A stretch of 56,042 bases of DNA from Chlamydiales bacterium (lineage in GTDB: Bacteria; Chlamydiota; Chlamydiia; Chlamydiales; SM23-39): NCBI GenBank assembly GCA_035479435.1, contig DATIIR010000058.1:1-56042 (forward strand), read 5' to 3'. This document shows positions 8,260 through 45,343 of the stretch, one piece after another; position 1 is the first letter of the stretch; each line of letters begins with the position of its first letter. The position numbers and the translations under genes were made by a program. The notes under the pieces are model-generated. The model saw only the letters and a program-made list of their open reading frames with translations. It searched no databases and had not been told where the DNA came from.

Positions 8260-8392
8260 ATTTTACCCTTGAGTTCCAAAGAATGAACACAGTTTAAGGG
8301 ATCGGACCCAAAAAGTAAAGGCCGAGATGGAATTTCCCCCCTTTTCTAGAGAGACTCCGTAAGTAATTGACAATAAGTAACTTGTTTTGTTA

Positions 8393-8421: not shown

Positions 8422-8440
8422 TACTTCGAAGGAAGGTAAT

Positions 8441-21970: not shown

Positions 21971-22582
21971 CTATTGTTTGTGAATGTTTTGGTTCAATTG
22001 GATGACTTCCCGACGAAGCTCTTCCATCGAACCATTGTTATGAATGGTATAGCGGGCTTTGGCTGCTTTCTTTTCTGGCTTTAGCTGCCGATTCATGCGT
22101 AGATCGTATTCCGTTTTTGGGAATCCCGCTTGCTCAAAACGCTTCCTGGCTATTGCCTCATCAGCGAGCACCGCGATTGCCACATCGTAGAATTTGTCCG
22201 CTCCGATTTCGAAGAGCAGAGGGATCTCCACCACAAAGGATGAGTACCGATCTGCTCTGCACGCCGACACATAGAGCTCTTCGATCTTTTGGAGCACCGC
22301 AGGATGGAGCAACTCTTCTAATTTCTTGAGAGTGGCTGGATCCTTGAATGCCTTTTCAGCAACAATCCTACGGCTAATCTGTCCATTTTTTATGATTTCA
22401 TTGCCGAGTTGTCGGATGATTTGCTGACCAAGATCGGTGTCGGGCGTTAGAAGCTCATGGACAATCGCATCAGCATTGACCACGTAGGCTCCCAGTTCTT
22501 CAAAGAACCGACAAACGGACGTTTTTCCGCTTGCCACCCCACCTGTGATAGCAATTTTCCTTAAGCTTAACATTCGGCCCAA
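21971..22582 (-). CDS. coaE: Dephospho-CoA kinase
   Basis: [15 protein letters not shown]-loop; about 200 aa. Confidence 0.88.
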
Positions 22583-27527: not shown

Positions 27528-29015
27528 CTATTTTTGTAAAGCGAGTTCGGGCTTGGTCAGGGCGTCGAACTGTTTGCCTAGAGAGAGTACGGAGAAGATC
27601 CAGACCAGGACGACGATGAGGAAGATCACGGCCACGTAGGGCGTGCTGGCGGCGACGGAGGAGAAAACGAGGAGAAGGCTTTGGTGGATCATCGATCCCC
27701 CCGATTTGCCGAGACGGGAGCCGACGCCATCGATGGCGGCTTTCCCTTTGAGTTTGCACTCGTCGCTCAGCGGGATGAAGGCGATCTCCTTGGTCGCGTC
27801 AAAAATGGTGTATTTGGAGGCTCTGCTGAAGCAATTCTGGAGTCCCCCGAGGGCGACGCTCAGCACCAAGGGGGTCGATCCGAGGGCGATGGCAAACCAG
27901 GAGAGGCCTGAATCGGGGAAGAGGACGTAGGCGAAGAAACAGACCCCCGTGGCCAAGGTAACAACAGGGGCGATTAAGGCCGAGAAGGTCCACGAAAATC
28001 TCCGAATGGTAAAGACGGTGGCCAGGGCTGCGACCGTGGCGATGATCCCCATCAGAGTCATCACTTCGCCCATGTAGATATTGTAGTCGCTCGGATTCGG
28101 GTAGAGTTCTTTGATCTGATTTTTCCAAACGACTTCGATCAAGTTAATGACCAGGTTATAGGAGAGGACGATGAGGGCGATGCAGAGTAAATATTTTGAT
28201 TTCAGTAGGTAGGCAAAATTCTTCCGCATCGACATTTTGATCTTTTCGGGGGGCTCTCTGAATTGTTCCTCTTTGCGGATCACATGTCGGTTGAGCCAGC
28301 GGAAAATAGCGATGGTGGCCACCCCAGATGCAATGATGAGGCAGTTGAGGAAGAGGATCGACTGATCCCAGCTGCATTTTCCATAAGGGATGAAGGTGAG
28401 ATAACGGGTGTCGGACAAGAAGACCGATGCCTGCCCGGAGAAAATCCCGGCGATATTGGCCCCGATCATCAGGAGTCCATAATACCGTTTTGCCTCATCT
28501 ACCTTCATGATCGCGTTGGCAAAGCCCCAGAAGAGGACCGAGAGGATGGCCGTCCCCCACAGCTCCGACATCACGTAGAACAAGGTAAACGTCCAATTGC
28601 GGAACATGGCAATTAAACCTTTGAATCCAGCCGGGAGAATCGCCTGCAGGTGGTCGGCCCATTTCGTCGGATGGAGGTACTCTTGGGCGGGGAAAAGGAC
28701 GAAGGTGAAGACCAAAAAGAAGCCGAGAAAGATGCACATCATTGCGTAAAAAACTTTTTCACGCGTGTAGCGGTTGGCTAGGCGGGTAAAGAGGTAGGTG
28801 AGCAAAAAGGCCCCAGGCAATATAGCCCAAACTTTAATGAACGGGATCGCCTCGGCCCCCGATTCGGGCGCTGTCACCACCAGGGTGTCTTTACAAGCTC
28901 GTAATGCATTGTAACTAAATGAGATAAGAAAAAACATGAAGAACATGGGAAGGAACTTTTTCAATTCCGAGCGGTGGATGGGCCAGAGGAGGGAACGCCA
29001 TTTTCCGAATTCCAT
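27528..29015 (-). CDS. NTT/Tlc-family nucleotide transporter (ADP/ATP translocase family)
   Basis: 12-TM protein. The N-terminus WPIHRSELKKFLPMFFMFFLISFSYNALRACKDTLVVT is characteristic of chlamydial/rickettsial NTTs. Confidence 0.92.
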   Translation of the reverse strand: MEFGKWRSLLWPIHRSELKKFLPMFFMFFLISFSYNALRACKDTLVVTAPESGAEAIPFIKVWAILPGAFLLTYLFTRLANRYTREKVFYAMMCIFLGFFLVFTFVLFPAQEYLHPTKWADHLQAILPAGFKGLIAMFRNWTFTLFYVMSELWGTAILSVLFWGFANAIMKVDEAKRYYGLLMIGANIAGIFSGQASVFLSDTRYLTFIPYGKCSWDQSILFLNCLIIASGVATIAIFRWLNRHVIRKEEQFREPPEKIKMSMRKNFAYLLKSKYLLCIALIVLSYNLVINLIEVVWKNQIKELYPNPSDYNIYMGEVMTLMGIIATVAALATVFTIRRFSWTFSALIAPVVTLATGVCFFAYVLFPDSGLSWFAIALGSTPLVLSVALGGLQNCFSRASKYTIFDATKEIAFIPLSDECKLKGKAAIDGVGSRLGKSGGSMIHQSLLLVFSSVAASTPYVAVIFLIVVLVWIFSVLSLGKQFDALTKPELALQK

Positions 29016-29112
29016 GAACTAGAAAACCCCGTTTTTTACACCAATTATCATGGCATATTTCGTCATTAAACTGAATGATAACAAGAATTTAATGATTTAT
29101 TTGATAGGGCGA

Positions 29113-29868
29113 TCAAAAAGAACGAGGGGTCTCACCACTTTTACCCCCTAAGAGGTTGCGGCGCATTAAGCTTGCTTTTACAACCTTGAGATAATCCGTT
29201 TTGTTCGAGAGGCTTGGCTGATGTCCCATATTGCTAGTATGAATCCGTCTGTGCATGGCGATTTTGTCGATCGTTTTCACTGGAACTTTTAGTTCCACTC
29301 CGCGCAAATACCAATCGACAAATTCTGCCCCTGCTTTTTCTTCAACAAAAGGGCCTATTTGTCTCAGCCGTTTTTTGCTGATGAGTAATGTGCCAGCACT
29401 GATCCCAGGTAAAATGGCGTTGGGGATAGAGAGTTTTTTTTTCTCCTCTTCGGAAAGAGTGGGACAAAAAAATTGTCTAGCATAGGTAAAAATGAGGGGA
29501 TCCTCGTCGAGAAACTGGATCATCTCCCTCATTTGGGTGGTCAGTTTATCTTTTTCCCATAGGTCATCGTGATCGAGAAAGGAGAAGTAGTTGCCTGTTG
29601 CCATGCGGATTCCGCTATTGCGAGCGGCCCCTAATCCCTTATTCTCTTGAGTCATACTTCTCACGAGATTTTTAAATGAGGCAATGACCTCTTTTGTCCG
29701 GTCGGTAGAGCCGTCGTTAACGACAATGACTTCTTTGTTCTCATAATCTTGAGCCAAAACACTTTCGATCGCTTCAGCTAGATAGTTTTCGCCGTTCCAG
29801 GCCGGGATGATCACGCTGATTTTTTCACTCATCTGATTTCCTGGCGACAAGGAAAACCGAAGATCCAA
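29113..29868 (-). CDS. Family 2 glycosyltransferase
   Basis: ISVIIPAWNGENYL...VIVVNDGSTDRT and DHDD motifs. The likely start is MSEKIS at 29832. Confidence 0.85.
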   Translation of the reverse strand: MDLRFSLSPGNQMSEKISVIIPAWNGENYLAEAIESVLAQDYENKEVIVVNDGSTDRTKEVIASFKNLVRSMTQENKGLGAARNSGIRMATGNYFSFLDHDDLWEKDKLTTQMREMIQFLDEDPLIFTYARQFFCPTLSEEEKKKLSIPNAILPGISAGTLLISKKRLRQIGPFVEEKAGAEFVDWYLRGVELKVPVKTIDKIAMHRRIHTSNMGHQPSLSNKTDYLKVVKASLMRRNLLGGKSGETPRSF

Positions 29869-31222
29869 AAGGGAGTCGATAGCCCCTCTTGAGGAGCGCG
29901 TCTTCCCCTCTCTGCAAGGCGAGAAAGAGCCAATTAAACGGGGGGATTTTCAAATCGGTTTTGAACAAGTGGGAGAGTCGAACTATGGCGATGAGTGGAA
30001 AGAGAAGGCAAACGCGATAGGAAGCTTGAGTGATTTCAAAGCCGCAGGAGGTGAGCAGCAGGGTGCACTCCCTTTTGCTAAACCGTTTTTTCATTTCGCA
30101 ATTGCGGTCATGCCGAGACCTCATCCAATTGTACGCAGGTTGATTGAAAATCACCGAGCCACCTGGCTTAAGAATTCGTTTAAGTTCTTGAATTGCAGGA
30201 ACGATCTCCTCCTTTTCTAACATACATAGCACATCGATCGCAAGGGCGAGGTCAAAGGAGTTATTGGAAAAAGCGATCTGGGTCATAGAGCCTTGCTGTA
30301 CGTTTTGCACCCCCCGTTTACGACAGTGCTCCAAGGCAATGGAAGAGATGTCGACGCCCTGAACGGCATAGTGCTTCTCTTGGAGGAATTGCATGAGACA
30401 ACCAGTCCCGCACCCCACATCGCAGATCGATGAGGGGAGGATCTTTTCTATCTCTGCGAGAATGCGCTCTCTCAAAGCGACGTACCACCAGAGTTTTTCT
30501 TCGACATGCCTCATCGCTTGAAATGGGGTAGTGGCAGAAGAACTCCTATTTTTCACAAACAATTTCAAATCGCCCGACAGCTTCTCGAAAATGAGCCCCA
30601 AAAAAGTATAGTTTGAATTTCCGTAAACGCGCGGGTAATGCCGAACGGGGACTTCGGAAAACTTGGCCCCTGCCGATTGCAGCTTGGAGATGAGTTCGGG
30701 CAAGATGGAGGCCCCCTTGCTGATGAACTGGGTATCTTGCAAATACCTCTTTCGAATCAGACGAAAATCGCAATCGATATCTCGGATAGGCAATCTAAAA
30801 AGAAGACGGCTAAAAATCTGGTAGGCATTCCCAAACAATACGCGGTGCCACGGATCGGATCTCTCGACTTTATAGCCATTGACGACATCGCACCCATCCG
30901 CCTGCAGCGCGAGTTTGAAGAGGTCGTCTAAATGATATTGCCCATCGCCGTCTGTGTAGAAGACCCACTCTTTTGTAGCTGCTTCAAATCCATGGCGGAT
31001 CACGGCATATCCCTCCCGATTTGCCGAGTGGTCGAGGACCACTAAATCGGGGTATTTCCCCTTCGCGATCAAAATCTCTGCAAAGGTATTGTCTTTTGAG
31101 GCTCCACCGTGAATGGCGATCACCTCCAAGTTTTCGGTGATTTGTTTTCCCACAGAGTAGGCCTGAGAGATCAGCGATCCCACGGTCCCAGCATCGTTCA
31201 TGAAAGGAAAAAAAATGGTCAA
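29825..31222 (-). CDS. Fusion protein: GT2-like glycosyltransferase domain plus class I SAM-dependent methyltransferase domain
   Basis: N-terminal half: IFFPFMND...YTDGDGQY. C-terminal half: ICDVGCGTGCLMQFL...LKPGGSVIF. Confidence 0.8.
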   Translation of the reverse strand: MTIFFPFMNDAGTVGSLISQAYSVGKQITENLEVIAIHGGASKDNTFAEILIAKGKYPDLVVLDHSANREGYAVIRHGFEAATKEWVFYTDGDGQYHLDDLFKLALQADGCDVVNGYKVERSDPWHRVLFGNAYQIFSRLLFRLPIRDIDCDFRLIRKRYLQDTQFISKGASILPELISKLQSAGAKFSEVPVRHYPRVYGNSNYTFLGLIFEKLSGDLKLFVKNRSSSATTPFQAMRHVEEKLWWYVALRERILAEIEKILPSSICDVGCGTGCLMQFLQEKHYAVQGVDISSIALEHCRKRGVQNVQQGSMTQIAFSNNSFDLALAIDVLCMLEKEEIVPAIQELKRILKPGGSVIFNQPAYNWMRSRHDRNCEMKKRFSKRECTLLLTSCGFEITQASYRVCLLFPLIAIVRLSHLFKTDLKIPPFNWLFLALQRGEDALLKRGYRLPFGSSVFLVARKSDE

Positions 31223-32319
31223 AGAGGAGAGCAGATACGCCCCTTTGTGGTTTCAATGACTCGAAGGATCTCCTCCTCCGAATGCATGAAGGAGCAAGGG
31301 AGGCTCAGGATCGTTCGATGGATCTCTTCGGATAGGGGGAAAAGCTCCTCTTGCAGTTTGCCTTGCAGCGCCTTTTGCTTGTGGGGAGGGATGGGGTAAT
31401 GGATCATCGTCTCGATCTGATTCTCCTGCAAATAGCTCTTCCATCCATCCCGGTCAGGATGGCGAATGGCGAAAATATGCCAAACATCTTCATACCCATT
31501 TTCCACAACTGGCAAAATCAAATCAGAAGGGAGATAGCGCAAGTAGAGAGCTGCCAGCTTCGCCTTATGGCGATTGATCTCATCTAGGCGTTTCAGCTTG
31601 ATCCTTAAAAAAGCGGCCTGCAGCTCATCCAATCGGTGGTTATACCCCACGATCTCATGGTGATTTTTCCCTTTGCTGCCGTAATTGCGCATCAGACACA
31701 CTTTTTCAAACAGCAGAGGATCATCCGTCGTAATCGCACCTCCATCTCCCAGTGCACCCAAATTTTTGGTGGGATAGAAGCTGAAGGCATTGATGTCTCC
31801 GAAGCTGCCCGCCTTTTTCCCCAAATAGCTCGCCCCATGGGCCTGTGCGCAATCCTCCACGACCTTCAACCCGTTTGCTTTTGCAAATCGCAGGATCGAG
31901 ACCATGGGAGAGAGCTTCCCATAGAGGTGAACCGGAAGGATAGCCACAGTGCGATCCGTCAACTTCGCTTCGAGCCCTTCTACGTCGAGATTGTAAGTGC
32001 TCAGGTTGGGCTCCACCAAGACGGGTACCAGGCCATTGTGTAAAATCGCTAAAAGGGTCGCGATGTAAGTATTGGAGGGGACGAGGACCTCTTTGCCGGG
32101 AGGGAAATCGAGGGCCATCAGAGCCAATCTGAGCGCATCTAGTCCCGAGCTGATGCCGACGCAGAAGCGGGTGCCCACATAGGCTGCAAATTCTTCCTCA
32201 AATTTTGCCGTCTCATCGCCGAGTATAAAGCGCCCTCTAAGGAGGAGGCGATCAAAGGCTCTCCGGAACTCATCTCCAAAGGGGGCGTTTACGCGGGCCA
32301 GATTTTCATACTCAATCAT
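31219..32319 (-). CDS. DegT/DnrJ/EryC1/StrS-family PLP-dependent sugar aminotransferase
   Basis: Family-wide pattern, including SFYPTKNLGALGDGG (the PLP lysine). Start chosen at MIEYENL, which overlaps the upstream stop. Confidence 0.88.
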   Translation of the reverse strand: MIEYENLARVNAPFGDEFRRAFDRLLLRGRFILGDETAKFEEEFAAYVGTRFCVGISSGLDALRLALMALDFPPGKEVLVPSNTYIATLLAILHNGLVPVLVEPNLSTYNLDVEGLEAKLTDRTVAILPVHLYGKLSPMVSILRFAKANGLKVVEDCAQAHGASYLGKKAGSFGDINAFSFYPTKNLGALGDGGAITTDDPLLFEKVCLMRNYGSKGKNHHEIVGYNHRLDELQAAFLRIKLKRLDEINRHKAKLAALYLRYLPSDLILPVVENGYEDVWHIFAIRHPDRDGWKSYLQENQIETMIHYPIPPHKQKALQGKLQEELFPLSEEIHRTILSLPCSFMHSEEEILRVIETTKGRICSPL

Positions 32320-32665
32320 AGATATAATTATCTGGCATGTAGGAGTGGGATGATAAAACCAACAAAATGGAGTTGGGTTCAAATTGGATGCTGTGCCAAT
32401 CGTCGGAATCTAGGACGAGACACAGATCAGGCGTATTGAGCAAGAAGTCTTGATCGTGTCCTTCAACCCTCACATGTACGCGGCACTCTTTGTGCAGACA
32501 GACGAGAGCTTGCTGTCCCACACGATGCTTATGGCCTGCTCTAGGGCGCTGATTCGTATCGTAGATGTAGTAGACTCTTTGAATAGAAAACGGCAAGACC
32601 TTCTCGATCACTGTCAACGCACCCCGTTCGTCTTTAAAAGAGGGAAGTTCCAATAGTTTCGGCAT
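32312..32665 (-). CDS. WxcM/FdtA-like cupin (NDP-6-deoxy-hexulose 3,4-ketoisomerase family)
   Basis: FKDERGALTVIE...RGGHKH-like RAGHKHR... pattern. About 117 aa, located next to the aminotransferase. Confidence 0.65.
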   Translation of the reverse strand: MPKLLELPSFKDERGALTVIEKVLPFSIQRVYYIYDTNQRPRAGHKHRVGQQALVCLHKECRVHVRVEGHDQDFLLNTPDLCLVLDSDDWHSIQFEPNSILLVLSSHSYMPDNYIYD

Positions 32666-32667
32666 AA

Positions 32668-33792
32668 TTACAACGAAAATTTATAGACGTTAACAAATGC
32701 GATGACATACATGGTTCCGAGGATCAAATTGCTGTAGATGTAGAAATTGCGAAACCACTCCTCTTCGTTGGCCAGAGCGATATACAAGGGGATCAACATC
32801 AAAACGTAGCGATAGGCCGCGTAGAAGCGCTCGCTGCCCGTTGATATGAGGAATACCACAATGCAAAAGATCAGTTCATTCAGAGGGATTTTTTTATAGT
32901 TTCGAATCAGGATGGCGGCGAATAGCGACCAGATGTAGAGATGAAACCATTGAAGAGGGGGATTTTTGATCCCCTTCAGGATAAAAACGACCAGCGACTC
33001 CAGAGGATAGGGGTTTGGGTTTCCCCAAGCCGCCTGTACATCGAAAAACGCGAATGCATTTCCCGTTAGCGAGTGGAGATACGCCATGTGAACCAGGGTG
33101 GGTATACCAAACAGGGCGACCATTACTGGTGCGTGGAGTATCTTTCTCCTAATCTGTGGATCGAATAAGAGCGCTCCTAGAGGGATCAAGAGAAGCGCCA
33201 CCAACTGCAGCCGCGTGATGGCCGCAAGACCAGCCATAATGGCGGCTAACCAGTACTTTTTTTCTTTCGTGAAGTGAAACGTACAAGCGAGGAGAAGTAA
33301 GCCGAGGCTTTCTGCGTAAGGGATTGACAGATAGAGACTTCCAGCAGACGCTAAATAGAGAAACAGAAACCGTTTCCTATTTGAAATGCGATCTTTGAAG
33401 GTATTGATGAAGATCCAGAGTGCCGAAAAGGAGGAGGCGCAAGAAATGAGAGAGCCGACGATGGAGAATTTGGTGGTGTGGAACAGCCAAACAAACGCCT
33501 TAATTGTCATGGGGTAGAGGGGTAAGAAGCCCCAACTTCTCTCTTTGAGGGTGTTAAACGGCATTGCATCGTAGCCGTGATGGGCGATTCGCGTATACCA
33601 AGAGACGTCCCATTTTGCCCAAATGGCTGTCATCCATTCGTTCCATGGCAAGTCGAGCTCTTGCTGGAAATGGTTGTAGGCTGCCAGAGAGATCGCAACG
33701 ATGACCAGACGGGAGACCACGAACAGCGAAGTGAGATACACCAGTAACGAGCGAGTCTCTGAAGCAATCTGAGGTTTTGCAATTGAAGCCAT
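32668..33792 (-). CDS. Polytopic GT-C-type membrane glycosyltransferase (PIG-V/DUF2029-like)
   Basis: At least 9 TM segments and a WDVSWYTRIAHHGY motif. Start chosen at MASIAKPQ. The 41 codons upstream in the track ORF cover a repeat fragment. Confidence 0.7.
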   Translation of the reverse strand: MASIAKPQIASETRSLLVYLTSLFVVSRLVIVAISLAAYNHFQQELDLPWNEWMTAIWAKWDVSWYTRIAHHGYDAMPFNTLKERSWGFLPLYPMTIKAFVWLFHTTKFSIVGSLISCASSFSALWIFINTFKDRISNRKRFLFLYLASAGSLYLSIPYAESLGLLLLACTFHFTKEKKYWLAAIMAGLAAITRLQLVALLLIPLGALLFDPQIRRKILHAPVMVALFGIPTLVHMAYLHSLTGNAFAFFDVQAAWGNPNPYPLESLVVFILKGIKNPPLQWFHLYIWSLFAAILIRNYKKIPLNELIFCIVVFLISTGSERFYAAYRYVLMLIPLYIALANEEEWFRNFYIYSNLILGTMYVIAFVNVYKFSL

Positions 33793-33854
33793 TGTAACCA
33801 AAATATTTGGACTTCGAAGGAGCGTAGAGCAGCTATGTAAAATAGTCAAGGGAT

Positions 33855-33888
33855 CGTTGAGACCGTTGCATAACCCTTCAAATGTCTT
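33855..33888 (+). repeat. Solo end of the MITE subfamily (GTTGCATAACCCT...TCTTGGCC)
   Basis: Matches the left end of copy 3 (36011-36044) at about 23 of 28 positions. Confidence 0.55.
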
Positions 33889-34023
33889 GGCCAAATAGAA
33901 GGACAGGATAGGCATGATTGCTGGCGCAGCATGATTTGCATGATATGATATTTTTTATCCTGTTTATCATGCCATTTAGATCATGCATATCCTGTTTTTC
34001 TTTTTATGCAATGATCTCATCGT

Positions 34024-34111
34024 TATTTATCAGATAGGGCGTCGATGCCGGGGAGATGCCCGTATTCGAGAAGTTCGAGTGAGGCGCCGCCGCCTGTCGA
34101 GAGGTGGGCAA
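34024..34111 (-). pseudogene. Displaced duplicate of the pgk 3' end (last 29 codons plus stop)
   Basis: 87 of 88 nt are identical to 34788-34875. It is preceded by its own stop codon (TAA here, TAG in the intact gene). Confidence 0.85.
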
Positions 34112-34206
34112 GAGGTGTGTAAATTTTTCTTATCTTCTCTGTAAGTTCTTTTAGTGATACGATGTTTCCGTTCGTGTGACATAATTCAGTAACGAAGGAG
34201 GCCTTT

Positions 34207-34554
34207 ATGTCTAGTACAAGACTTCAGTTTCCAAGCGCAGATGTAATGACACAATTTTTATCCAATCATGGACTGTTGAATTGCGACTATTATCGAGAAA
34301 ACAACATTACACAAACCGTAGCGAGACTCTCTGCAGAACGATTTGCTGATACCAACAAGCCAGAACGAGGTATTGAAATGGGAATAATGTTAATCGTTAA
34401 CGATCTTAAGACAGGAAAGGACGGTTTTTCTGGAGCAGATCTCCCAAAGATCGAGTTGCCGGAGGCGATGTGGCCCCAGCTTGGTTTGGCTCTTCGAAAG
34501 GCTCTCGTTGAGTGCGCAGAAATTCCAGTAGCAGACAGCAAAAATAAGGTCTAA
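34207..34554 (+). CDS. Hypothetical protein (orphan, 115 aa) inside the pgk-duplication cassette
   Basis: Strong AGGAGG RBS 7 nt upstream. Visibly lower GC than the surroundings. No domain recognised. Confidence 0.55.
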   Translation: MSSTRLQFPSADVMTQFLSNHGLLNCDYYRENNITQTVARLSAERFADTNKPERGIEMGIMLIVNDLKTGKDGFSGADLPKIELPEAMWPQLGLALRKALVECAEIPVADSKNKV

Positions 34555-34575
34555 TGCAGATCTTTTCGGGCTCGC

Positions 34576-34719
34576 GGCCTTGTTGCATAATTCTTCGCTG
34601 TTAGACGGTTCAATAACCACCGAGCACACCGAGATCACCGAGAAGAGGAAAAAGGACCTAAATTTCCCCTCGGTGCTCTCGGTGATCTCGGTGGTTAATT
34701 TGATTTATGCAACAACACC
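34576..34719 (+). mobile_element. MITE-like hairpin element, copy 2, with an 8-bp target-site duplication
   Basis: Terminal inverted repeats (TIRs) GGCCTTGTTGCATAA / GGTGTTGTTGCATAA (13 of 15 match). Flanked by GGGCTCGC at 34568-34575 and again at 34720-34727. Internal arms carry 3x CACCGAG facing 3x CTCGGTG. Confidence 0.88.
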
Positions 34720-34786
34720 GGGCTCGCTGTTTTTTTTGAAGAGGGTGAGTCGTTTGGTTTTTCTCCAAAAGCACTTAGAGGTCTCC

Positions 34787-35956
34787 CTATTTATCAGATA
34801 GGGCGTCGATGCCGGGGAGATGCCCGTATTCGAGAAGTTCGAGTGAGGCGCCGCCGCCTGTGGAGAGGTGGGCAAATCGATCGCCCAGACCCATTTGCTG
34901 AATCGCTGCGACCGAGTCGCCGCCGCCGATGATGGTTTTGGCCTTGGCGTGGGCAAGCGCTTCGGCGATGCCGCGGGTTCCCGTGGCAAAGTGGGCCATT
35001 TCAAAGACTCCGACGGGTCCATTCCAAAAAACAGTGGCGGCTTTCGTTAATTCCTTAGACCACTGGGCAATGGTCTGAGGCCCAATGTCCATCCCTTGCC
35101 AGCCGGTGGGGATGCCCTGATGGATGGGAACGATCCGCCTGGTGGCATCATTGGAAAAGGCGTTGGCGATGACGAGATCGACGGGAAAATGGAGCTTGGT
35201 TTTGGGAAGATCGCGGATGGTATTGGGATCTTCGCAGAGCGAATCGCCGATGGGGATGCCCTGCGCTTTGAGAAATGTGTAGACCATGCCGCCGCCGATG
35301 AAGAGGGCGTCTACGCGTTTGAGCAGGCTTTGGATCACGCCGATTTTACTCGAGATCTTGGCTCCGCCGATGAGGGCAAAGAAGGGGCGCGCGGGATTGT
35401 GGAGGAGGGGACTGAGTTCTTGGAGCTCTTTCTCCATCAGAAAGCCCATGGCGGCTTTGTGGGGGAAGAATTTGGCGATGAGGGCTGTCGATGCATGGGC
35501 GCGGTGGGCGGTGCCGAAGGCGTCATTGACGTAGCAATCGCCCAGTTTCGCGAGCTGCGCGGTAAATGAGGGGTCTTTTTCGGGCGTCTCTTCTCCGGCG
35601 TGAAAGCGAAGGTTTTCCAATAGGAGCACTTGGCCGGGTTGCAGTTGGGTCGCCATTTTTTTTACTTCGGGACCGATGCAATCGGGCGCCATGGCGACTG
35701 GTTTTTTCAGCAGATCCGATAGCTTTTTAGCGCAGGGCGCAAGTGTCAACTGCGGGTCTTTGCCTTTAGGCCGGCCCAGATGGCTCATCAGAATGAGCGA
35801 GGCGCCCTGGTTGAGTACGTATTCAATGGAGGGCAAAGAAGCGACAATGCGCGAATCGTCGGTGATGACTCCGTTTTCGATGGGGACGTTGAAGTCGACG
35901 CGCATGAGAACGCGCTTTCCCTTAAGCGATAGATCTTTCAGGGTGAGTTTAACCAT
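34787..35956 (-). CDS. pgk: Phosphoglycerate kinase
   Basis: RVDFNVP, MSHLGRP and GGGDS motifs. 389 aa. Confidence 0.96.
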   Translation of the reverse strand: MVKLTLKDLSLKGKRVLMRVDFNVPIENGVITDDSRIVASLPSIEYVLNQGASLILMSHLGRPKGKDPQLTLAPCAKKLSDLLKKPVAMAPDCIGPEVKKMATQLQPGQVLLLENLRFHAGEETPEKDPSFTAQLAKLGDCYVNDAFGTAHRAHASTALIAKFFPHKAAMGFLMEKELQELSPLLHNPARPFFALIGGAKISSKIGVIQSLLKRVDALFIGGGMVYTFLKAQGIPIGDSLCEDPNTIRDLPKTKLHFPVDLVIANAFSNDATRRIVPIHQGIPTGWQGMDIGPQTIAQWSKELTKAATVFWNGPVGVFEMAHFATGTRGIAEALAHAKAKTIIGGGDSVAAIQQMGLGDRFAHLSTGGGASLELLEYGHLPGIDALSDK

Positions 35957-36010
35957 ATTTCGATGGTAGGTAAGGGAGGCGATTTAGTCAAGCGAGCCAG
36001 TTATGAGCCG

Positions 36011-36128
36011 GTTGCATAACCCTCAGATATCTTGGCCGGAAGGGTAAAATTAACCACCGAGCACACCGAGAGCACCGAGAAAGGGTAGGAAAATGCGCGT
36101 TTCGCGCCTCGGTGTCTCTCGGTGGTTG
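36011..36128 (+). mobile_element. MITE-like element, copy 3 (diverged and truncated)
   Basis: GTTGCATAA end, then 3x CACCGAG facing 2x CTCGGTG. There is no right TIR and no TSD. Confidence 0.6.
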
Positions 36129-36161
36129 AAAAAATTAGCGAAAATTGTGGGTCAGACTTAG

Positions 36162-36911
36162 TTATAGATCGGCGAAGGGGCTGGACTGCTGTTCAAAGCT
36201 GCCCCCTCTTTTCCGATTGCGCAATTCAGAGCGGATGGAGAAGAGAAGGTCTTGATCGAAGTCTTTCCGCTCGGCCCAGAGGAGATACTCAACGGGGATT
36301 TCGTCAAAGCGGCGCCCCTTGTGCTTGCCGAGCGGCATCGTTTTGAGTTTGATCGGCTTTTCGAGGGTTTTGAAGATCTGCTCGGTGGTTTGGAAGGACT
36401 TGGTGAGGTACTTAAACACTTCGATGTTGACGATCACGTCGCTCATGGCGCGGTGGGCCCCTTCGGGTTCGATGTTGAAGTGCTGGCGGAGGCGCTCGAG
36501 GGAATTGATGGGGCTCTCGCCATAGAGGCGGGCGAGGCGAAGGGTGTCGATGAAGGGCTGCTTCTCGATTTGGGTGGGGATTTGGCTCCGTTTGGCCTCG
36601 GCGGCGATGAGAGAAATGTCAAAGCCAATGCCGTGGCCGATGAGGATGTGGCCGTGGATCAGCTTGAGCGCCTCAGGGAGAATTTCGGCGACTTTTGGCT
36701 TCCCTTCTAGCATCTCGATCGAAATCTTGTGGATGTCTTGCGATACTTGGGGAATGGCGCACTCGGGATCGATGAGGGTTTCAAATTTTTGCAGAATGTG
36801 ATCGAAGGTAAAACGGGCAACGGCGATCTCGATCATCCGGTCTTTGGCCGGGTCGAGCCCCGTCGATTCGCAATCGACACAGACAAAAATGTCTTGGTGA
36901 ATCAATCCCAT
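36162..36911 (-). CDS. DnaQ-like DEDDh 3'-5' exonuclease with a C-terminal DUF3820-like domain
   Basis: VCVDCESTGLD, HGIGFD and HRAMSD exo motifs. The C-terminus reads MPLGKHKGRRFDEIPVEYLLW. Confidence 0.85.
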   Translation of the reverse strand: MGLIHQDIFVCVDCESTGLDPAKDRMIEIAVARFTFDHILQKFETLIDPECAIPQVSQDIHKISIEMLEGKPKVAEILPEALKLIHGHILIGHGIGFDISLIAAEAKRSQIPTQIEKQPFIDTLRLARLYGESPINSLERLRQHFNIEPEGAHRAMSDVIVNIEVFKYLTKSFQTTEQIFKTLEKPIKLKTMPLGKHKGRRFDEIPVEYLLWAERKDFDQDLLFSIRSELRNRKRGGSFEQQSSPFADL

Positions 36912-37465
36912 AAAATTTGTCCGATCCTTTTTTCTAAGTTGACGCGAGAATGGTGGTCTTCGACTGTGTAGGGAATCGCTTCAGGGTGCTTTTTCAGGAG
37001 CGCTACTTTCTCGCCGCTGGATAGTTTATCAGTTTTGGTCAAAATCAACAAAAGGGGAATTCGCTTGTGGGTGGCCCATTCGATGAGAGTCTGGTCCTCA
37101 GGGCCGATGTCGCGGCGGCTGTCGATGAGAAGGAGGATGAGGCGGAGCGTGGGGCGGTTGTTGAGGTAGTTGTCGATCGCCTCGGACCACTTGCCCACTT
37201 CTTCTTTGGGCGCTTTGGCGTAGCCGTAACCGGGGAGGTCGACGAGGAGAAATTTCTCATCGACGGAGAAGAAGTTGAGGAGGCGCGTTTTGCCAGGAGT
37301 GGAGGAGGTTTTGGCGAGCCTTTTTTGTTCGAGAAGATGGTTGATGAGGCTCGACTTGCCCACATTGGAACGGCCTACAAGGGCAATCTCGGGGAGGAGT
37401 TTGCCTCGGGGGTCTTTGAGGGTGGGAAATTCGGTGAGGGTGGAGAGGAGAAAGCGGGCTTTCAT
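36902..37465 (-). CDS. engB: Ribosome-biogenesis GTPase EngB/YihA
   Basis: GRSNVGKSSLIN, DLPGYG and TKTDK motifs. Start chosen at MKARFLL (ATGA overlap with tsaE). Confidence 0.9.
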   Translation of the reverse strand: MKARFLLSTLTEFPTLKDPRGKLLPEIALVGRSNVGKSSLINHLLEQKRLAKTSSTPGKTRLLNFFSVDEKFLLVDLPGYGYAKAPKEEVGKWSEAIDNYLNNRPTLRLILLLIDSRRDIGPEDQTLIEWATHKRIPLLLILTKTDKLSSGEKVALLKKHPEAIPYTVEDHHSRVNLEKRIGQILWD

Positions 37466-37878
37466 GGGAGCACCTCGGCTAGGCGCTGGGTCCCGTCGTA
37501 GGAGAAGTGGATGGAGATGGTTTCGGGAGGGAGAAGGGAGGCGATCCGGTCGGGCCATTCGATGGCGCAGAGTCCCCCCTTTTGGAAGTACTCTTCAAAT
37601 CCCATGCTGGTGAAATCGGAGGGCTTTTTCAGCCGGTAAAGGTCAAAGTGAAAGAGGCGGTCTTGGTAGATATTTAAAATCACAAAAGTGGGGCTCTGCA
37701 CGTTTTCTTCGATTCTGAGGCCGAGCGCTAAGCCTTGGACAAAAGTCGTCTTGCCAGCGCCCAAGTCACCAGAAAGGGCAATCACCGCATTCGGAGGGAG
37801 GAGCGTCGCCATCTTTCGCCCAAAGGCAAGGGTCTCTTCATGCGAGGCGAGCGAATAGATCAATCCGATTCGACCCAT
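37462..37878 (-). CDS. tsaE: tRNA t6A biosynthesis ATPase TsaE
   Basis: LSGDLGAGKTTFVQG P-loop and HFDLYR motif. Confidence 0.88.
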   Translation of the reverse strand: MGRIGLIYSLASHEETLAFGRKMATLLPPNAVIALSGDLGAGKTTFVQGLALGLRIEENVQSPTFVILNIYQDRLFHFDLYRLKKPSDFTSMGFEEYFQKGGLCAIEWPDRIASLLPPETISIHFSYDGTQRLAEVLP

Positions 37879-38585
37879 TTTTCAAGATAAGGCCCGAATT
37901 CGAGGTGTTGCGAAAGCGCCTCAACAAAGCCGGCAATCTTGTCTTCTGTCAGATACTTCTGGATAAAGCTGAGGAAATGCTCTTCGATCTGGAACCGGTT
38001 CTGGTTTTGCACTTCGAGGAGCGTGAGTGGCTTTACATGGTTCTTTTTGAAGTCATCGATTACGGCTGCTTTGCTGTTGAAAAGCTTGCCTGTAACGGCT
38101 GATGAGTAGACGACCTTCTTCATCGATGCTTTTCGCTGGCTGATATAATTCTTAATCACTTCGGGGTCTTCAGAGACAAAAAATCTCTTCACAGGGAGGC
38201 CGCCGACTCGCTCTTTATTCTCTGGGCATTTGGAGACCCAGTCGTAAATGGCGTCTTGGGGATTGGGACAGGTGTTGTCGCCAAAGACCTTGCCGGTAAA
38301 GGGGCAGATGTAAATCTTTTTTGTCTGCTCGTTGACGCTTTGCTGGCCGAACTGGATGGTGATTTCCGTCTCACGCCAAAGCTTGCCCTGCTGCTCAAGA
38401 GCTGCGATCAGATCATCGATGCTTTGATAGATCGTCTTGTCTCGGGGAAACAGAACGGGCCTTACGTGGTGCTTTTCCTCCACGAAAAAGAGGTAAACGG
38501 TCACCAAATCGGCGCCGCGGTTCTTTTTTAAAAATTTCAGTAACTCGTTTTTCTGTTCCGCAGAAATACTGAGGGCAGTTGTCAT
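37860..38585 (-). CDS. Conserved hypothetical protein with a Cys-rich central motif
   Basis: 241-aa ORF containing ICPFTGKVFGDNTCPNPQDAIYDWVSKCP. I cannot assign a function. Confidence 0.65.
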   Translation of the reverse strand: MTTALSISAEQKNELLKFLKKNRGADLVTVYLFFVEEKHHVRPVLFPRDKTIYQSIDDLIAALEQQGKLWRETEITIQFGQQSVNEQTKKIYICPFTGKVFGDNTCPNPQDAIYDWVSKCPENKERVGGLPVKRFFVSEDPEVIKNYISQRKASMKKVVYSSAVTGKLFNSKAAVIDDFKKNHVKPLTLLEVQNQNRFQIEEHFLSFIQKYLTEDKIAGFVEALSQHLEFGPYLEKWVESD

Positions 38586-38718
38586 GATATCCTCAAAAAT
38601 CTTAGACAGCTAAGGTACAATAAAGACTGATTATCATCAAGACATTGATCGCTTCTTGATTTTGGAGCGGAGGCGTGATATAGTCTTTTCAAAAAATATT
38701 TGGCGAGGATCCCCCACG

Positions 38719-39879
38719 ATGAGCAACGCGACTTTAGAAAAGGCCCCAAAGAAAGTACTCTCCTCTCTGGTTCGAGAGGCGAGAGAGACCCTTCATCTCG
38801 AAAATATACCCGTCAAAGGCTACGAAAGGGTCGTCAAGGTGACGGACAAGAAGGCTGGACTCACGGGGATCATCGCCGTCCATAGCACGGTGCTGGGGCC
38901 CTCGCTCGGGGGGATCCGGATTCGGCCCTACCCCACATTCGACGCCGCCTTGGAAGACGTGTTGCGCCTCGCCAAAGGGATGACCTACAAAATGGCCGTC
39001 GCCGAAACGGGTCTTGGCGGGGGAAAGAGCGTGATCATCGCCGACCCTAAAAAGGAAAAAACCCCCGAATTGCTCATGGCGATGGGCGCCGCGATCGAAA
39101 GACTCGGAGGGAGCTACATTTGCGCTGAAGATATGGGTTGCACCATGGATGATGTGAAGATCGTTCGCCGTGCGACGAAGTATGTCGTAGGGCTCTCCCA
39201 CGCTAAGAGCAGCGGCGATCCTGGACTCTTCACAGCCTGGGGCACTTTTCGCGGGATTCAATCCATTGTAAAGCGGCTTTACATGACCGATTCCCTAGAG
39301 GGACGAAGGGTTGCAGTCCAAGGAATTGGCAATGTGGGAACCCCTCTCATCGACCACCTTTTTTGGGCTGGTGCCGAATTGATTCTCTCCGATATCGACG
39401 CGGCTAAATTGGACTACTATGCGACCAGATACAACGCGAAAAAGGTCTCTCCCGATCAGATTTTGAAAGTGGAGTGCGATGTGCTCTCTCCCTGCGCGGC
39501 GGGCGCCATCTTCAACGACCAGACGATTCCCCAATTGCGCTGCAGAGGGATCTCGGGATGTGCCAACAATCAGCTGCTCCGCGACGACCACGCGCGAGCG
39601 CTGAAAGACAGAGGCATCCTCTATGCGCCCGATTTCGTCGTCAGTGGCGGCGGAGTCATCAACGTCGCCGAGGAGCTCGAGGATGCGGGCTATAACCCCA
39701 CTACACCTCGCTACAAAGTACACCACATTTACGACACGCTTCAGGCCATCTACGAGATCGCCGACAAGAACAACGAATCGACCCATGAAGCCGCCGTCGC
39801 CTTGGCCGATTATCGACTCAAGTACGCGATTGGCAAGAGAGTTGTTCCCCCCACATTCCACCACAGCGCAGAATTCTAG
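38719..39879 (+). CDS. Glu/Leu/Phe/Val dehydrogenase family protein (leucine dehydrogenase-like)
   Basis: GPSLGGIRI, KMAVAETGLGGGK and VAVQGIGNVG motifs. Start chosen at MSNATLEK. Confidence 0.88.
   Translation: MSNATLEKAPKKVLSSLVREARETLHLENIPVKGYERVVKVTDKKAGLTGIIAVHSTVLGPSLGGIRIRPYPTFDAALEDVLRLAKGMTYKMAVAETGLGGGKSVIIADPKKEKTPELLMAMGAAIERLGGSYICAEDMGCTMDDVKIVRRATKYVVGLSHAKSSGDPGLFTAWGTFRGIQSIVKRLYMTDSLEGRRVAVQGIGNVGTPLIDHLFWAGAELILSDIDAAKLDYYATRYNAKKVSPDQILKVECDVLSPCAAGAIFNDQTIPQLRCRGISGCANNQLLRDDHARALKDRGILYAPDFVVSGGGVINVAEELEDAGYNPTTPRYKVHHIYDTLQAIYEIADKNNESTHEAAVALADYRLKYAIGKRVVPPTFHHSAEF
39267..39283. repeat. Iterated palindrome copy e
   Basis: TGTAAAGCGGCTTTACA inside the dehydrogenase ORF, translated as IVKRLYM. 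Confidence 0.9.
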
Positions 39880-41622
39880 ATGGAAACGGTGTTATCGGTT
39901 TTTAAAAAGAAGGTCACCGATGCGATGGTTCGCGCCTTTGGAGATGCCCTCTCTGCCGAAGAGGCCAAATCTGACATAGCCCCCTGCGCGCAGGAGGAGT
40001 TTGGCCATTACCAGTGCAATAGCGCACTTCGCCTCTCCAAAATCTTGAAGCAAAATCCCCGCGCTATTGCTCAGAAGATCATCGACTGTTTCGACTCCGA
40101 CATGTGCTCCAAAGTCGAAATCGCGGGGCCTGGCTTCATCAACTTCACCCTTTCGCCCTCCTTTTTGTCTCACCAATTGGAGCAGCAATTAAACGACCGC
40201 TTTTTGGGCGCTTGCCCTCCTGCAAAGAGACAAAAAATCATCGTCGAATTCTCCTCTCCAAATATCGCCAAGGAGCTCCACGTCGGTCATATCCGTTCGA
40301 CCATCATCGGCGATTGCCTGGCGCGCCTCTTTGAATTTTTGGGACAAGACGTCCTCCGTTTGAATCACCTCGGCGACTGGGGCACGCAGTTTGGGATGTT
40401 GATCACCTACATGAAGGCCTTTTGCCCTGCCGTTTTGAGTGGCGATGAACCCACGGATCTAGAATCGCTGATGCAGTGGTACAAGGCCTCCAAAAAGCGA
40501 TTTGATGAAGACCCCGAATTTAAATCCAAGGCGCAAAAAGAGGTGGTCCGCCTCCAAGCCGGTGAAAAAGAGTCGATCCATGCTTGGAAACTCATTTGCG
40601 AAGTATCGCGCAAGGGCTTTCAGGAAATTTACGACCTGATGCATGTCCGCATCACCGAGCGAGGTGAGTCGTTTTACAACCCCTATCTCAAAGACGTAGT
40701 CGAGGAACTCGATCGGAAAGGGTTGGTGACTATTTCCGATGGCGCCAAGTGCATCTTTCTCGAAGGCTTCCAAAACCGCGAAGGGGAGCCGCTCCCCCTC
40801 ATGATCCAAAAATCGGATGGGGGCTACAACTACGATACCACCGACCTCGCTGCCATTCGCCATCGCATTCAGGTGGAGAAAGCCGACCGGATTATCGTCG
40901 TCGTCGATGCGGGCCAATCGCTCCATTTCGATATGATTTTTGCCGCCGCGAGAAAGGCGGGTTGGCTCGACTCTAAAGTGGAGGCCGACCATGTGGGATT
41001 TGGCCTCGTCCTCGGCGCTGACGGGAAGAAATTCAAGACCCGTTCAGGGGAGACAGAAAAGTTGATCGATCTCCTGCATGAGGCGATCGATAAGGCGCGC
41101 ATCATCATCGCCGAGCGCCTTCCCGAAGCCGATCCGAAAGAGGCAGACCACCTCGCCCATGTCCTTGGGATTGGCGCTGTCAAGTACGCCGACCTCGCCT
41201 CGCTCCGCACGAAAGATTACACATTTAGCTATGAGCGGATGCTCCGTTTTGAGGGCAATACGGCTGTTTTTCTCCTCTACGCCTACGTTCGGATCAATGG
41301 GATCAAGCGAAAAACGCACGCCGACATGCGCCAAGTTCTAGCCCATCACAAGATTGCAGTGAACCACCCCTCTGAAATTTCTCTGGGCCTCCATTTGCGC
41401 CGCTTTGGAGAGGTTCTCGACACGATGGCCCGCGACCTTCTCCCCAATCGCCTCACAGATTATCTCTATGAACTTGCGGAGAAGTTCAACGCCTTCTTCC
41501 GCGACTGCAGAGTCGAAGGTTCTCCCGAAGAGGGAAGCCGCCTCGTCCTTTGCGAGCTCACGGCCCGCGTCCTCAAGCAAGGCCTCGAGATCCTCGGCCT
41601 AGAAACCGTCGACCGAATGTAG
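39880..41622 (+). CDS. argS: Arginyl-tRNA synthetase
   Basis: SSPNIAKELHVGHIRS (HIGH region), the class I core, and a DALR anticodon-binding C-terminus. Confidence 0.95.
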   Translation: METVLSVFKKKVTDAMVRAFGDALSAEEAKSDIAPCAQEEFGHYQCNSALRLSKILKQNPRAIAQKIIDCFDSDMCSKVEIAGPGFINFTLSPSFLSHQLEQQLNDRFLGACPPAKRQKIIVEFSSPNIAKELHVGHIRSTIIGDCLARLFEFLGQDVLRLNHLGDWGTQFGMLITYMKAFCPAVLSGDEPTDLESLMQWYKASKKRFDEDPEFKSKAQKEVVRLQAGEKESIHAWKLICEVSRKGFQEIYDLMHVRITERGESFYNPYLKDVVEELDRKGLVTISDGAKCIFLEGFQNREGEPLPLMIQKSDGGYNYDTTDLAAIRHRIQVEKADRIIVVVDAGQSLHFDMIFAAARKAGWLDSKVEADHVGFGLVLGADGKKFKTRSGETEKLIDLLHEAIDKARIIIAERLPEADPKEADHLAHVLGIGAVKYADLASLRTKDYTFSYERMLRFEGNTAVFLLYAYVRINGIKRKTHADMRQVLAHHKIAVNHPSEISLGLHLRRFGEVLDTMARDLLPNRLTDYLYELAEKFNAFFRDCRVEGSPEEGSRLVLCELTARVLKQGLEILGLETVDRM

Positions 41623-41630
41623 CGATTCAA

Positions 41631-41988
41631 CAAGTCTATCTACGCAGGGCAGAGAACAGGATAACGACTCGCTCTCGCGAGTCTGAAGATATCCACTCGC
41701 TGCGCGAGTGGGCAAGATACGTCCGCCTGATGGCGGACTGGCAGGATAAGAGAAAGGGGGAGCGCCGGGCCCAGCCTCCGGCTGGTATTGCGCCTGCGGC
41801 GCAATTGCGAATTGCATTCGCGCCCGGCGCTCCCCCGCTTCGCGTCTTCTTGGGGCGCGGGGCCTCCCCGCATCTTGTAAGCCTGCTATCAAGCAGGCGT
41901 ATCGTGCCCACTCGCAACGCGAGTGGACATCCTTAGGCTCGAGAGAGCGAGCCGTCATCCTGTTCCCCGCCTTGCATAGATAGACTTG
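41631..41988. repeat. 358-bp long inverted repeat composed of serial short hairpins
   Basis: Arms of about 140 bp (CAAGTCTATCTACGCAGG... versus ...CCTTGCATAGATAGACTTG) are roughly three-quarters identical as reverse complements. At least 10 local hairpins are present, for example 41693-41711 and 41908-41926. Confidence 0.85.
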
Positions 41989-41996
41989 TGGGTAAC

Positions 41997-42021
41997 AAAA
42001 AAACGCCTCCTAGAGGAGGCG
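41997..42021 (-). terminator. Rho-independent terminator downstream of epmB
   Basis: On the minus strand: CGCCTCC-TCTA-GGAGGCG followed by T7. Confidence 0.65.
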
Positions 42022-42151
42022 CCAAATAACAAAAAGGTGATTAGGGTTATTATGAATAATTAACAATGGTTGGTTGTTAATCGCCATTGATTATAGCAAA
42101 ATCATTAATATAGTTACAGTGAAGATTTTACGTTACATTAAGTATTTATTA

Positions 42152-43153
42152 TCAATAAGTTATGAATGTTTTGCTTGGCATGCCGGGCTCTTCCCTCGCG
42201 AATCGGGGGACCCCAAAGCCCGACAGGTTTTCTTGGATGTGGCGGATGAGCTGAAGGCCCCTCTCATCGGAGACGGCAAAGTGGCTGGTCCCCTGAACGG
42301 GGTCTAGGGCGTGAAGGTAGTAGGGGATCACACCTGCGTTGAGAAGCTCCTCGGACAGCGAGAGGATCGTCTGTTCATCGTCGTTCACTCCCTTCAGAAG
42401 TACCGATTGATTCAGCACGGGGATGCCGAGCGATTGGATCTTCTTCAGGCCGCCCACGACATCTTGGTCGAGTTCCCTCGGATGGTTTACATGGACGATG
42501 AAAACCATTTGCTTAGAAGAGTTTTCTAAAAGGTCGAGAAACGAGTCGTCGATCCTTTCGGGGATGCCTACGGGGAATCGGCTGTGGAAGCGGATCCGTT
42601 TCAGGTGGGGAATGGCCTCGAGCGCGCGGAAGAAAGTGACCAGGGCGCCATCGCTCAGAGACAGGGGGTCGCCGCCGCTGAGGATGATCTCCGCAATGGT
42701 TGGGTCTTGGGCGATGTAGGCGATTTCGTTGTCAAAACTTTTTTCCTCAGTTTCGTAGGGAAAATTTTGTCTAAAACAGTAGCGGCAATGCATGGCACAG
42801 GCGCTCGTCGCCACCACCAGGGCCCGCCCCTGGTACTTGTGGAGAATTTTCTTTGTTTTTTTGAACCGTTGATCTTGCACGGGATCGGTGACAAAGCCAG
42901 GAGTGATGGCCAGCTCCTCTTCCAAGGGCACAAATTGGCGCAAAATGGGATCGTCCAGTGTGTTCTTGGCTATTTTTGCGGCGAGCCGTTTGGGGAGATT
43001 GAGGATAAAGCGGGGCTGCTTCAGAACACGCTTCTTCAGTGCATCTGACAGTTCCAAAAACTCGAGGAGGGGTTCGATTTGTGTGAAGTTTCCTCTCTGG
43101 ATTTGGCGCCACAGGGGGATCGCTTGTGTTTTCTCTGGGCAAAGGACGGTCAT
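42152..43153 (-). CDS. KamA-family radical SAM protein (lysine 2,3-aminomutase / EpmB-like)
   Basis: CAMHCRYCFRQNF radical-SAM cluster motif and ILSGGDPL. Confidence 0.88.
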   Translation of the reverse strand: MTVLCPEKTQAIPLWRQIQRGNFTQIEPLLEFLELSDALKKRVLKQPRFILNLPKRLAAKIAKNTLDDPILRQFVPLEEELAITPGFVTDPVQDQRFKKTKKILHKYQGRALVVATSACAMHCRYCFRQNFPYETEEKSFDNEIAYIAQDPTIAEIILSGGDPLSLSDGALVTFFRALEAIPHLKRIRFHSRFPVGIPERIDDSFLDLLENSSKQMVFIVHVNHPRELDQDVVGGLKKIQSLGIPVLNQSVLLKGVNDDEQTILSLSEELLNAGVIPYYLHALDPVQGTSHFAVSDERGLQLIRHIQENLSGFGVPRFAREEPGMPSKTFITY

Positions 43154-43308
43154 AGCGCCAGAGAGTTTAATCGTTTTGAGAGCCCTTTGTCAATTTGAGG
43201 TTTTGGCTGTTCAAAAAATTCTTGCACAAATCTGAGGCGATTCGCTAGGATTCCCTCTCTTTAAGAAAATCTTAGTAGTTTTTAAAAACCAAGTCAAGGA
43301 GAGTCAGT

Positions 43309-45321: not shown

Positions 45322-45343
45322 CAACAGTAAGCCCCAGGGAAGT

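Follow-up and report, generated by a model that had tools for sequence, protein, structure and literature searches.

Introduction

In Escherichia coli, prophage e14 and phage 21 integrate in the 3' end of icd and carry a substitute 3' end with them; both are prophages of 15-40 kb with an integrase of their own, and the substitute end differs from that of the host at several positions. Islands of the ICE type (integrative and conjugative elements) and the IME type (integrative and mobilizable elements), together with cis-mobilizable elements (CIMEs), are known to accrete in tandem at the 3' ends of genes, e.g., the ICESt1 family at fda in Streptococcus thermophilus (PMC5704250). Displaced 3' ends are also found in rhs loci, contact-dependent inhibition (CDI) loci and type VI secretion system (T6SS) effector loci, where they are attributed to homology-facilitated illegitimate recombination (PMC5361080, citing Jackson 2009, de Vries & Wackernagel 2002 and Prudhomme 2002). 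Here we analyze a scar at the 3' end of pgk in a 56,042-nt contig of an uncultured Chlamydiales bacterium (DATIIR010000058.1, assembly GCA_035479435.1; this whole stretch is hereafter the window), in which an 88-bp direct repeat of the end of pgk brackets a 676-bp cassette.

Our preferred explanation, to which we would give slightly less than an even chance, is that the 88-bp repeat marks the joint of the younger of two serial insertions, both of which entered pgk within its final ~90 nt, and that these insertions were driven by homology to pgk itself, with no integrase involved. Read along the direction of pgk transcription, the inserted material consists of a small cassette (X), a displaced pgk end (R'), a miniature inverted-repeat transposable element (MITE-B), a glycan-modification cluster (Y) and a second, older displaced end (R''), such that the full locus can be written as pgk[R]-X-[R']-MITE-B-Y-[R'']-NTT, where R is the functional end of pgk and NTT is the gene that follows.

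Results

The pgk gene lies on the minus strand (34787-35956), encodes a protein of 389 aa (PF00162, E=4e-148) and ends in a TAG stop codon at 34787-34789. Its 3' end (R, 34788-34875, minus strand) is repeated directly at 34024-34111 (R', minus strand) with identity at 87 of 88 nt, which makes this the longest direct repeat of the window (BLAST E=8.6e-44). In the pgk frame, both copies translate to AHLSTGGGASLELLEYGHLPGIDALSDK, which corresponds to the final 28 pgk codons, and then reach a stop codon, which is TAG in R and TAA (34023-34025) in R'. The sole mismatch (C at 34098 versus G at 34862) is synonymous, the serine codon being TCG in one copy and TCC in the other, and identity ceases past the second base of the stop codon. 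R serves the intact gene, and R' is displaced and untranslated, there being no in-frame start upstream of it. A sequence-only reading of the window had reported this 87/88 match at the same coordinates, with a separate stop codon (TAA versus TAG) for each pgk 3' end and with the right copy inside the intact gene, and translation of both copies bears it out.

The gene order around pgk is conserved across Chlamydiota (DUF2709-TsaE-EngB-RNaseT-pgk-NTT-VTT-CDP-OH-S49), and in all 22 Chlamydiota loci for which there was enough downstream sequence, pgk is directly followed by NTT, with spacers of 67-833 nt. The window keeps the same genes (DUF2709, TsaE, EngB and RNase T; NTT, VTT, CDP-alcohol phosphatidyltransferase and the S49 peptidase), but ~5.8 kb (29016-34786) separate pgk from NTT, the TLC-type ATP/ADP translocase gene (27528-29015, minus strand; PF03219, E=4e-189) that by synteny is its ancestral direct downstream neighbor. 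Because pgk directly precedes NTT across the Chlamydiota loci, the whole pgk-NTT interval in the window is, judged by gene order, a lineage-specific insertion. The 676 bp bracketed by the 88-nt repeats are the newest and smallest layer of this 5.8-kb insert.

A third pgk end is found at the opposite border of the insert. This sequence (R'', 29095-29114, minus strand) reads GAT(C)GCCCTATCAAATAAAT and matches the end of the window's pgk, CGCCCTATCTGATAAAT, at 15 of 17 positions; it overlaps the stop codon of the last gene of Y, a family 2 glycosyltransferase (GT2), and directly precedes the conserved element upstream of NTT. Shuffles reached the score of the match in 0.05% of cases (p=0.0005), and 125-nt stretches drawn at random from the same sequence did so in 0.8%. 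In position, too, the match is colinear with what would be expected if a pgk end had been joined to the island-proximal edge of the spacer, and it is in register with the locus of one relative (L003), whose pgk stop codon abuts the same block upstream of NTT. As a control, we searched the pgk-NTT spacers of the 22 relatives for remnants of their own pgk ends, and none held one comparable to R''. We therefore read R'' as the stub, ~20 nt in length, of the ancestral pgk terminus (...DALSNK).

The three ends thus show graded decay, with 87 of 88 positions shared between R and R' and 15 of 17, over ~20 nt, retained in R''. All three share no more than the final ~20 nt of pgk: Homology begins at position -88 in the case of X and near -20 in that of Y. 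Because R'' sits at the far side of Y, the locus is a serial array that was built by at least two insertions at the same place.

The cassette X (34112-34787, 676 bp) has a GC content of 0.44, versus 0.524 for the window and 0.569 for pgk, in agreement with the low-GC segment of this length that the sequence-only reading had placed between the two copies. When the mobile element that it contains (MITE-A) and the associated target duplication are subtracted, X amounts to ~524 bp, and apart from the MITE it has no second copy within the window. At the junction of R and X, the end of pgk, GATAAATA, is followed by GGGAGACC, and at the junction of X and R', ACACACCTC is followed by TTGCCCACC; a site free of X would be expected to read GATAAATA followed by ACGATGAGATC. 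At the joint of X and R' (34111/34112), GAGGTGGGCAA and then GAGGTGTGTAA form a tandem match at 9 of 11 positions and not one shared copy. R and R' are long enough that RecA could mediate the loss of X as a 764-bp circle.

X carries a 115-aa open reading frame (ORF115, 34207-34554, plus strand) that is convergent with pgk; at its two edges, the cassette has 95 nt and 67 nt that are unassigned. ORF115 is preceded by a Shine-Dalgarno sequence (GGAGG) 6 nt upstream and by a possible extended -10 element (TGACATAAT, at ~34178-34186), and its GC content at third codon positions (GC3) is 0.39. The sequence-only reading had taken this frame for an orphan, which is wrong: An exhaustive HMMER search recovered 91 homologues at E<=1e-3, the best of which is 46% identical over its full length, and most of which are 105-115 aa (~110 aa) long. 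A word-indexed homologue search, in which only the window's own protein was returned, is misleading in view of these 91 homologues. No match to ORF115 was found in Pfam, NCBIfam or PHROGs. AlphaFold2, applied to the family alignment, predicts a confident fold (predicted local distance difference test score, pLDDT, 94.2; predicted template modeling score, pTM, 0.85), and a Foldseek search of this prediction against PDB gave nothing significant (best E=1). Because it has 91 homologues and a confidently predicted fold with no match in PDB, ORF115 is a real gene of an uncharacterized family.

The few homologues whose origin could be traced come from metagenome-assembled genomes labeled as Chlamydiota and from one labeled "Verrucomicrobia bacterium", and the contexts in which they occur are ordinary chromosomal ones with no integrases. 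Within the family (protein set P0002-P0095), one member (P0014) is fused to a eukaryote-type MYND zinc finger, and residues 47-108 align repeatedly by HMMER to the repeats of vertebrate AHNAK and AHNAK2 (14 stretches in P0007 and nine in P0084); these alignments may represent eukaryote-like repeats or may be spurious. In one genome (GCA_018240105.1, JAFEGE010000127.1, locus L161, 7699-10351), three family members stand in tandem 3' of a chorismate-binding gene, where a unit of 811 nt, comprising the 3' ~270 nt of that gene together with a family member, has been duplicated. The gene-fragment part of these units is 89-98% identical and the family genes are only 67-76% identical, a difference in sequence that suggests either that the family genes diverge fast or that the fragment has undergone gene conversion. 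The L165 locus (3302-5146) belongs to the same observation. A general tie of the family to duplicated ends of neighboring genes was considered and dropped, since only one of four other contexts has such an end, and that one (L161) is a true tandem duplication.

MITE-A (34575-34720) is a palindromic element of 146 nt whose 16-nt terminal inverted repeats (CGGCCTTGTTGCATAA and CGGTGTTGTTGCATAA) match at 14 of 16 positions. A direct repeat of 6-8 bp, (C)GGGCTCG, lies on either side of it, with the target duplication GGGCTCG at 34568-34574 and 34720-34726, and a copy that is 97% identical lies at 262-405. Being short, non-coding and multicopy, with terminal inverted repeats and a target duplication, it is indeed the MITE that the sequence-only reading had noticed in the cassette. 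Because its own target duplication lies within X, MITE-A is a later arrival inside X. Its region folds as a long hairpin (z=-6.95) between the convergent ORF115 and pgk genes, and the core motif of the family occurs five times versus zero expected.

By alignment, MITE-B (33855-34022) has terminal repeats of the same family (CGTTGAGACCGTTGCATAA ... TTATGCAATGATCTCATCG); it lies flush against the R' stop codon, and its DNA fold has z=-5.5. MITE-C (36004-36135) is a partial, mosaic copy upstream of pgk. The sequence GTTGCATAA was found six times versus 0.2 expected. Terminal repeats of this type and a core rich in CCGAG characterize the family, of which the 56 kb contain four copies, full or mosaic, three of them within 2.3 kb around pgk. 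MITE-A and MITE-B resemble the MITEs of other bacteria in their length of 146-168 nt, their terminal inverted repeats, their strong folding, their lack of an open reading frame and their membership in a family of several copies, and MITE-A also has a target duplication of 6-8 bp; the family differs in that MITE-B and MITE-C are mosaic or partial and show no clear target duplication.

Two other readings of these elements were rejected. A composite transposon reaching from MITE-B to MITE-A is contradicted by its outer flanks, CAAGGGAT and GGGCTCGC, which do not match, and by the separate target duplication of MITE-A. An integron attC site is contradicted by the nature of the palindrome past ORF115, a dispersed MITE with ends unlike the attC cores (RYYYAAC...GTTRRRY), and by the lack of an integrase among the frames scanned in the window.

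The remainder of the insert is formed by Y (29113-33915, minus strand), a cluster of five glycan-modification genes, assigned with Pfam and NCBIfam, that are co-directional with pgk. All on the minus strand, they encode a GT-C-like membrane protein (32668-33792/33915), FdtA (32312-32665), a DegT aminotransferase (31219-32382), a GT2-methyltransferase fusion (29825-31222) and the GT2 (29113-29868). Their GC3 of 0.48-0.60 compares with 0.6-0.76 in the flanking core genes. The cluster is absent between pgk and NTT in all 22 of the relatives' loci, and Y-like modules in other genomes, at ~60% identity, lie inside larger polysaccharide loci.

When open reading frames of at least 150 aa (one per locus) were scanned across the 56-kb window, none had a Pfam match to a recombinase, integrase or transposase. 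Nor did plasmid and phage collections, searched at both the DNA and the protein level, contain any match for the region or for ORF115. There is, moreover, no room for a deleted integrase inside X, with its 95 nt and 67 nt at the edges, or at the ends of Y, where the GT2 stop codon overlaps R''. The only gene of the window with a mobile-element flavor lies ~19 kb from pgk: It is a low-GC3 (0.44) open reading frame of 153 aa (54018-54479) that matches HTH_17 (excisionase/MerR-type) in two stretches and adjoins an autotransporter gene (54540-56024).

Scans of genomes and metagenomes for pgk found no locus from the same species. The best relatives are 74% (the closest Chlamydiota pgk) and 72% identical to the pgk of the window, exact-protein look-ups of pgk and ORF115 returned no record, and the 90% clusters of both hold only the window's own proteins. 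A mosaic origin of the 3' part of pgk was dropped as a candidate, in that neither sliding identity nor GC3 shows a break.

A sister strain (GCA_964460525.1) is 99.7% identical to the window. The contigs recovered from it (L169, L172 and L174) cover positions 29661-33837 (Y), 35937-46756 and ~29044 downwards, and they end at window positions 29044, 29661, 33837 and 35937, i.e., near the borders of the insert and 20 nt into pgk. These ends are compatible with structural heterogeneity in the population or with fragmentation induced by repeats, and they hint at strain-level structural variation around pgk.

Comparison with this strain brought up two further differences. Downstream of argS, the window has an inverted repeat of 118 nt (41630-41989; 80% complementary, with a 124-nt spacer), near which the strains differ by an indel (window 42162-42216 versus L172 4596-4695). 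DNA polymerase I is a 905-aa open reading frame in the window (22567-25284) and is 558 aa long in the sister strain (L174 3779-6523), where it is preceded by a 144-aa open reading frame on the opposite strand; the difference may be a real disruption or one of assembly or annotation. Elsewhere in the window, a 338-aa open reading frame (8862-9878) has a weak Pfam match to AvrB_AvrC, a type III effector family (E=3e-7), and is preceded by a low-GC3 open reading frame of 161 aa (8387-8872) that has no matches.

Discussion

The repeats, the three pgk ends, the break in synteny, the later arrival of MITE-A and the lack of recombinase genes among the frames scanned are observed, and from them we infer both the order of events and the recombination mechanism. 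Starting from an ancestral layout in which NTT directly followed pgk, the ~4.9-kb Y would have entered ~20 nt before the pgk stop codon together with a replacement end, which is now R', leaving the old end as the ~20-nt stub R'' before NTT. In a second step, the ~0.5-kb X with ORF115 would have entered 88 nt before the stop, bringing in the replacement end that is now R and pushing R' downstream. MITE-A would then have landed within X, and the timing of MITE-B relative to the insertions can't be told. The resulting layout, in which an anchor gene is followed by new cargo and then by displaced older ends, is that of a displacement array.

Each of these insertions would use the pgk sequence itself as homology, so that no dedicated integrase would be required. 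This could occur by a Campbell-type single crossover with a circular or looped intermediate that carries a pgk 3' fragment, or by one-ended homologous recombination coupled to an illegitimate join at the far end; in either case, selection would retain those products in which both pgk and the region upstream of NTT are intact. The position of both joints inside pgk would be accounted for because the pgk stop codon ancestrally abuts the element upstream of NTT, such that a joint further downstream would damage the expression of NTT. The termination of the R/R' identity at the stop codon is likewise expected, because the joined haplotypes would share pgk and differ beyond it. Furthermore, because the incoming pgk segment is identical to the resident one at 87 of 88 positions, its sequence points to a source within the same species or the same genome, and not to a roving element with an old attP site.

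Several observations weigh against this homology-driven scenario. No donor arrangement, with pgk followed by X or by Y, exists in the relatives compared, and the joint between X and R' lacks clean microhomology: CACCTC is present twice, 5 nt apart, and not once at the junction. Had Y stood between pgk and NTT in a donor, ordinary double homologous crossover should have been by far the more frequent route, and R'' would not have been left behind. Two events at one target of ~90 nt, each of which restores the reading frame, are also the classical signature of site-specific accretion, and since the recombinase search covered the 56 kb of the window, an enzyme that acts in trans could be encoded elsewhere in the genome. 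Finally, the sequence-only reading had proposed related genomes as the place to find an empty site downstream of pgk. At the level of the phylum there is one, in that the 22 loci have pgk and NTT without the 5.8-kb insert, but the stretch from pgk through X and R' to MITE-B was not recovered from the sister strain, and no site empty of X alone was retrieved within the species.

The foremost alternative, which we consider possible but doubtful, is site-specific accretion, in which the pgk 3' end is the attB site for a tyrosine or serine recombinase that acts in trans (encoded elsewhere in the genome or by an element since lost), and X and Y are CIME-like remnants or cassettes that integrated serially. 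R would then be attL, R' a hybrid attI and R'' attR, with the newest insert nearest to pgk. Direct repeats with the target-gene 3' end do flank both inserts (R and R' around X, R' and R'' around Y), the order of their decay fits newcomers that enter at the functional gene end, and the last ~20 nt of pgk, which are present in all three copies, could hold the core. The position of the lone R/R' mismatch, toward the inside of pgk, is compatible with polymorphism in an attP arm; there is ample precedent for CIMEs and for tandem accretion at the 3' ends of genes (PMC5704250); and the ends of the sister-strain contigs hint at heterogeneity in the population.

However, accretion does not readily accommodate the lack of a recombinase in the 56 kb or of space for a deleted integrase. 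There is a large difference between the two duplicated lengths, 88 versus ~20 nt, and the incoming pgk segment is nearly identical to that of the host even at synonymous sites, which is unusual for a mobile attP. The cargo, i.e., a small-protein family of chlamydial chromosomes and a glycan cluster, has neither the hallmarks of mobile elements nor matches in plasmids and phages. The sequence-only reading had interpreted the repeats as an att-like scar with the geometry that integrative elements leave, but on a segment far too small to encode an integrase, and had named a decayed island, a small mobilizable cassette and a product of duplication as possible origins. Its geometry, in which an insertion in the pgk 3' end supplies a replacement and displaces the old end, is upheld by synteny and by R''. 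The integrative element itself is unproven and not the likeliest agent, given the ordinary contexts of ORF115 homologues and the searches that found no recombinase among the frames scanned in the window and no match in plasmid and phage collections.

Tandem duplication followed by loss is quite unlikely. Under this model, a unit composed of the pgk 3' end and X was doubled, and the second X was deleted or replaced when MITE-B and Y arrived; that such units can duplicate in the ORF115 family is evident from the 811-nt unit at L161. But there is no trace of a second X beyond R', the deletion would need an endpoint no more than 1 nt from the stop codon, and R'' beyond Y is left unexplained. X would also have to pre-date Y, and yet R and R' have hardly diverged and R'' is decayed. 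The simple form of this model, with adjacent units of the same content, is refuted by the sequence past R', which is not homologous to X.

We regard as similarly improbable that this chlamydial lineage uses the 3' end of pgk as a dedicated site of capture, at which a recombinase acting in trans stacks integrase-less cassettes of very different size (one small gene or a five-gene operon), each with a replacement end, in the manner of an integron. The least credible of the alternatives is an artefact in which the assembly chained coexisting pgk-X and pgk-Y haplotypes through their shared pgk end: Although the window, whose proteins are on record for a 56,042-nt contig only, looks like a whole metagenome-derived contig and contigs of the 99.7%-identical strain end around the region, a false join needs a k-mer shared by the end of X and pgk position -88, where there is none, the two copies differ by one base and were resolved as distinct sequences, and R'' is independent evidence of real insertions at the site.

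The locus shows how environmental chlamydiae, which are obligately intracellular and have kept their gene order deeply conserved, can still gain genes at one junction, with the essential pgk and NTT undamaged, and the scars form a readable stack by which the insertion events can be ordered. Because a sister strain that is 99.7% identical exists, together with its reads, the locus can serve to separate integrase-driven from homology-driven stacking of islands. The ORF115 family is of interest in its own right, being widespread and unannotated, with a confidently predicted fold that is absent from PDB, an occasional MYND fusion and a propensity for local duplication.

With e14 and phage 21, the pgk locus shares the substitution of the 3' end of a central-metabolism gene, as a result of which the end is duplicated and the gene remains functional; it differs in that the inserts are small, have no integrase of their own and, in the case of X, come with an end that is identical at 87 of 88 positions. 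Like the ICESt1 family and its CIMEs, the locus has integrase-less segments, acquired serially, within direct repeats that hold the 3' end of a glycolytic gene, and the gene is intact. Unlike them, it shows no cognate integrase, ICE or IME within 56 kb, its repeats of 88 and ~20 nt do not readily correspond to one fixed att core, its cargo is devoid of mobile-element features, and it occurs in Chlamydiota with pgk as the target.

With the rhs, CDI and T6SS arrays, the locus has in common a conserved upstream anchor, an incoming new 3' end with cargo, and older ends that have been shifted and decay according to their age. Its displaced ends are, in contrast, near-identical ends of a metabolic enzyme and not alternative toxin domains, and it has no immunity genes or sign of a selective arms race. 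On present evidence, these comparisons do not call for a new class of mobile element: The pgk scar belongs to a known, ordinary kind of recombination scar, to which it adds an example from Chlamydiota with pgk as the target.

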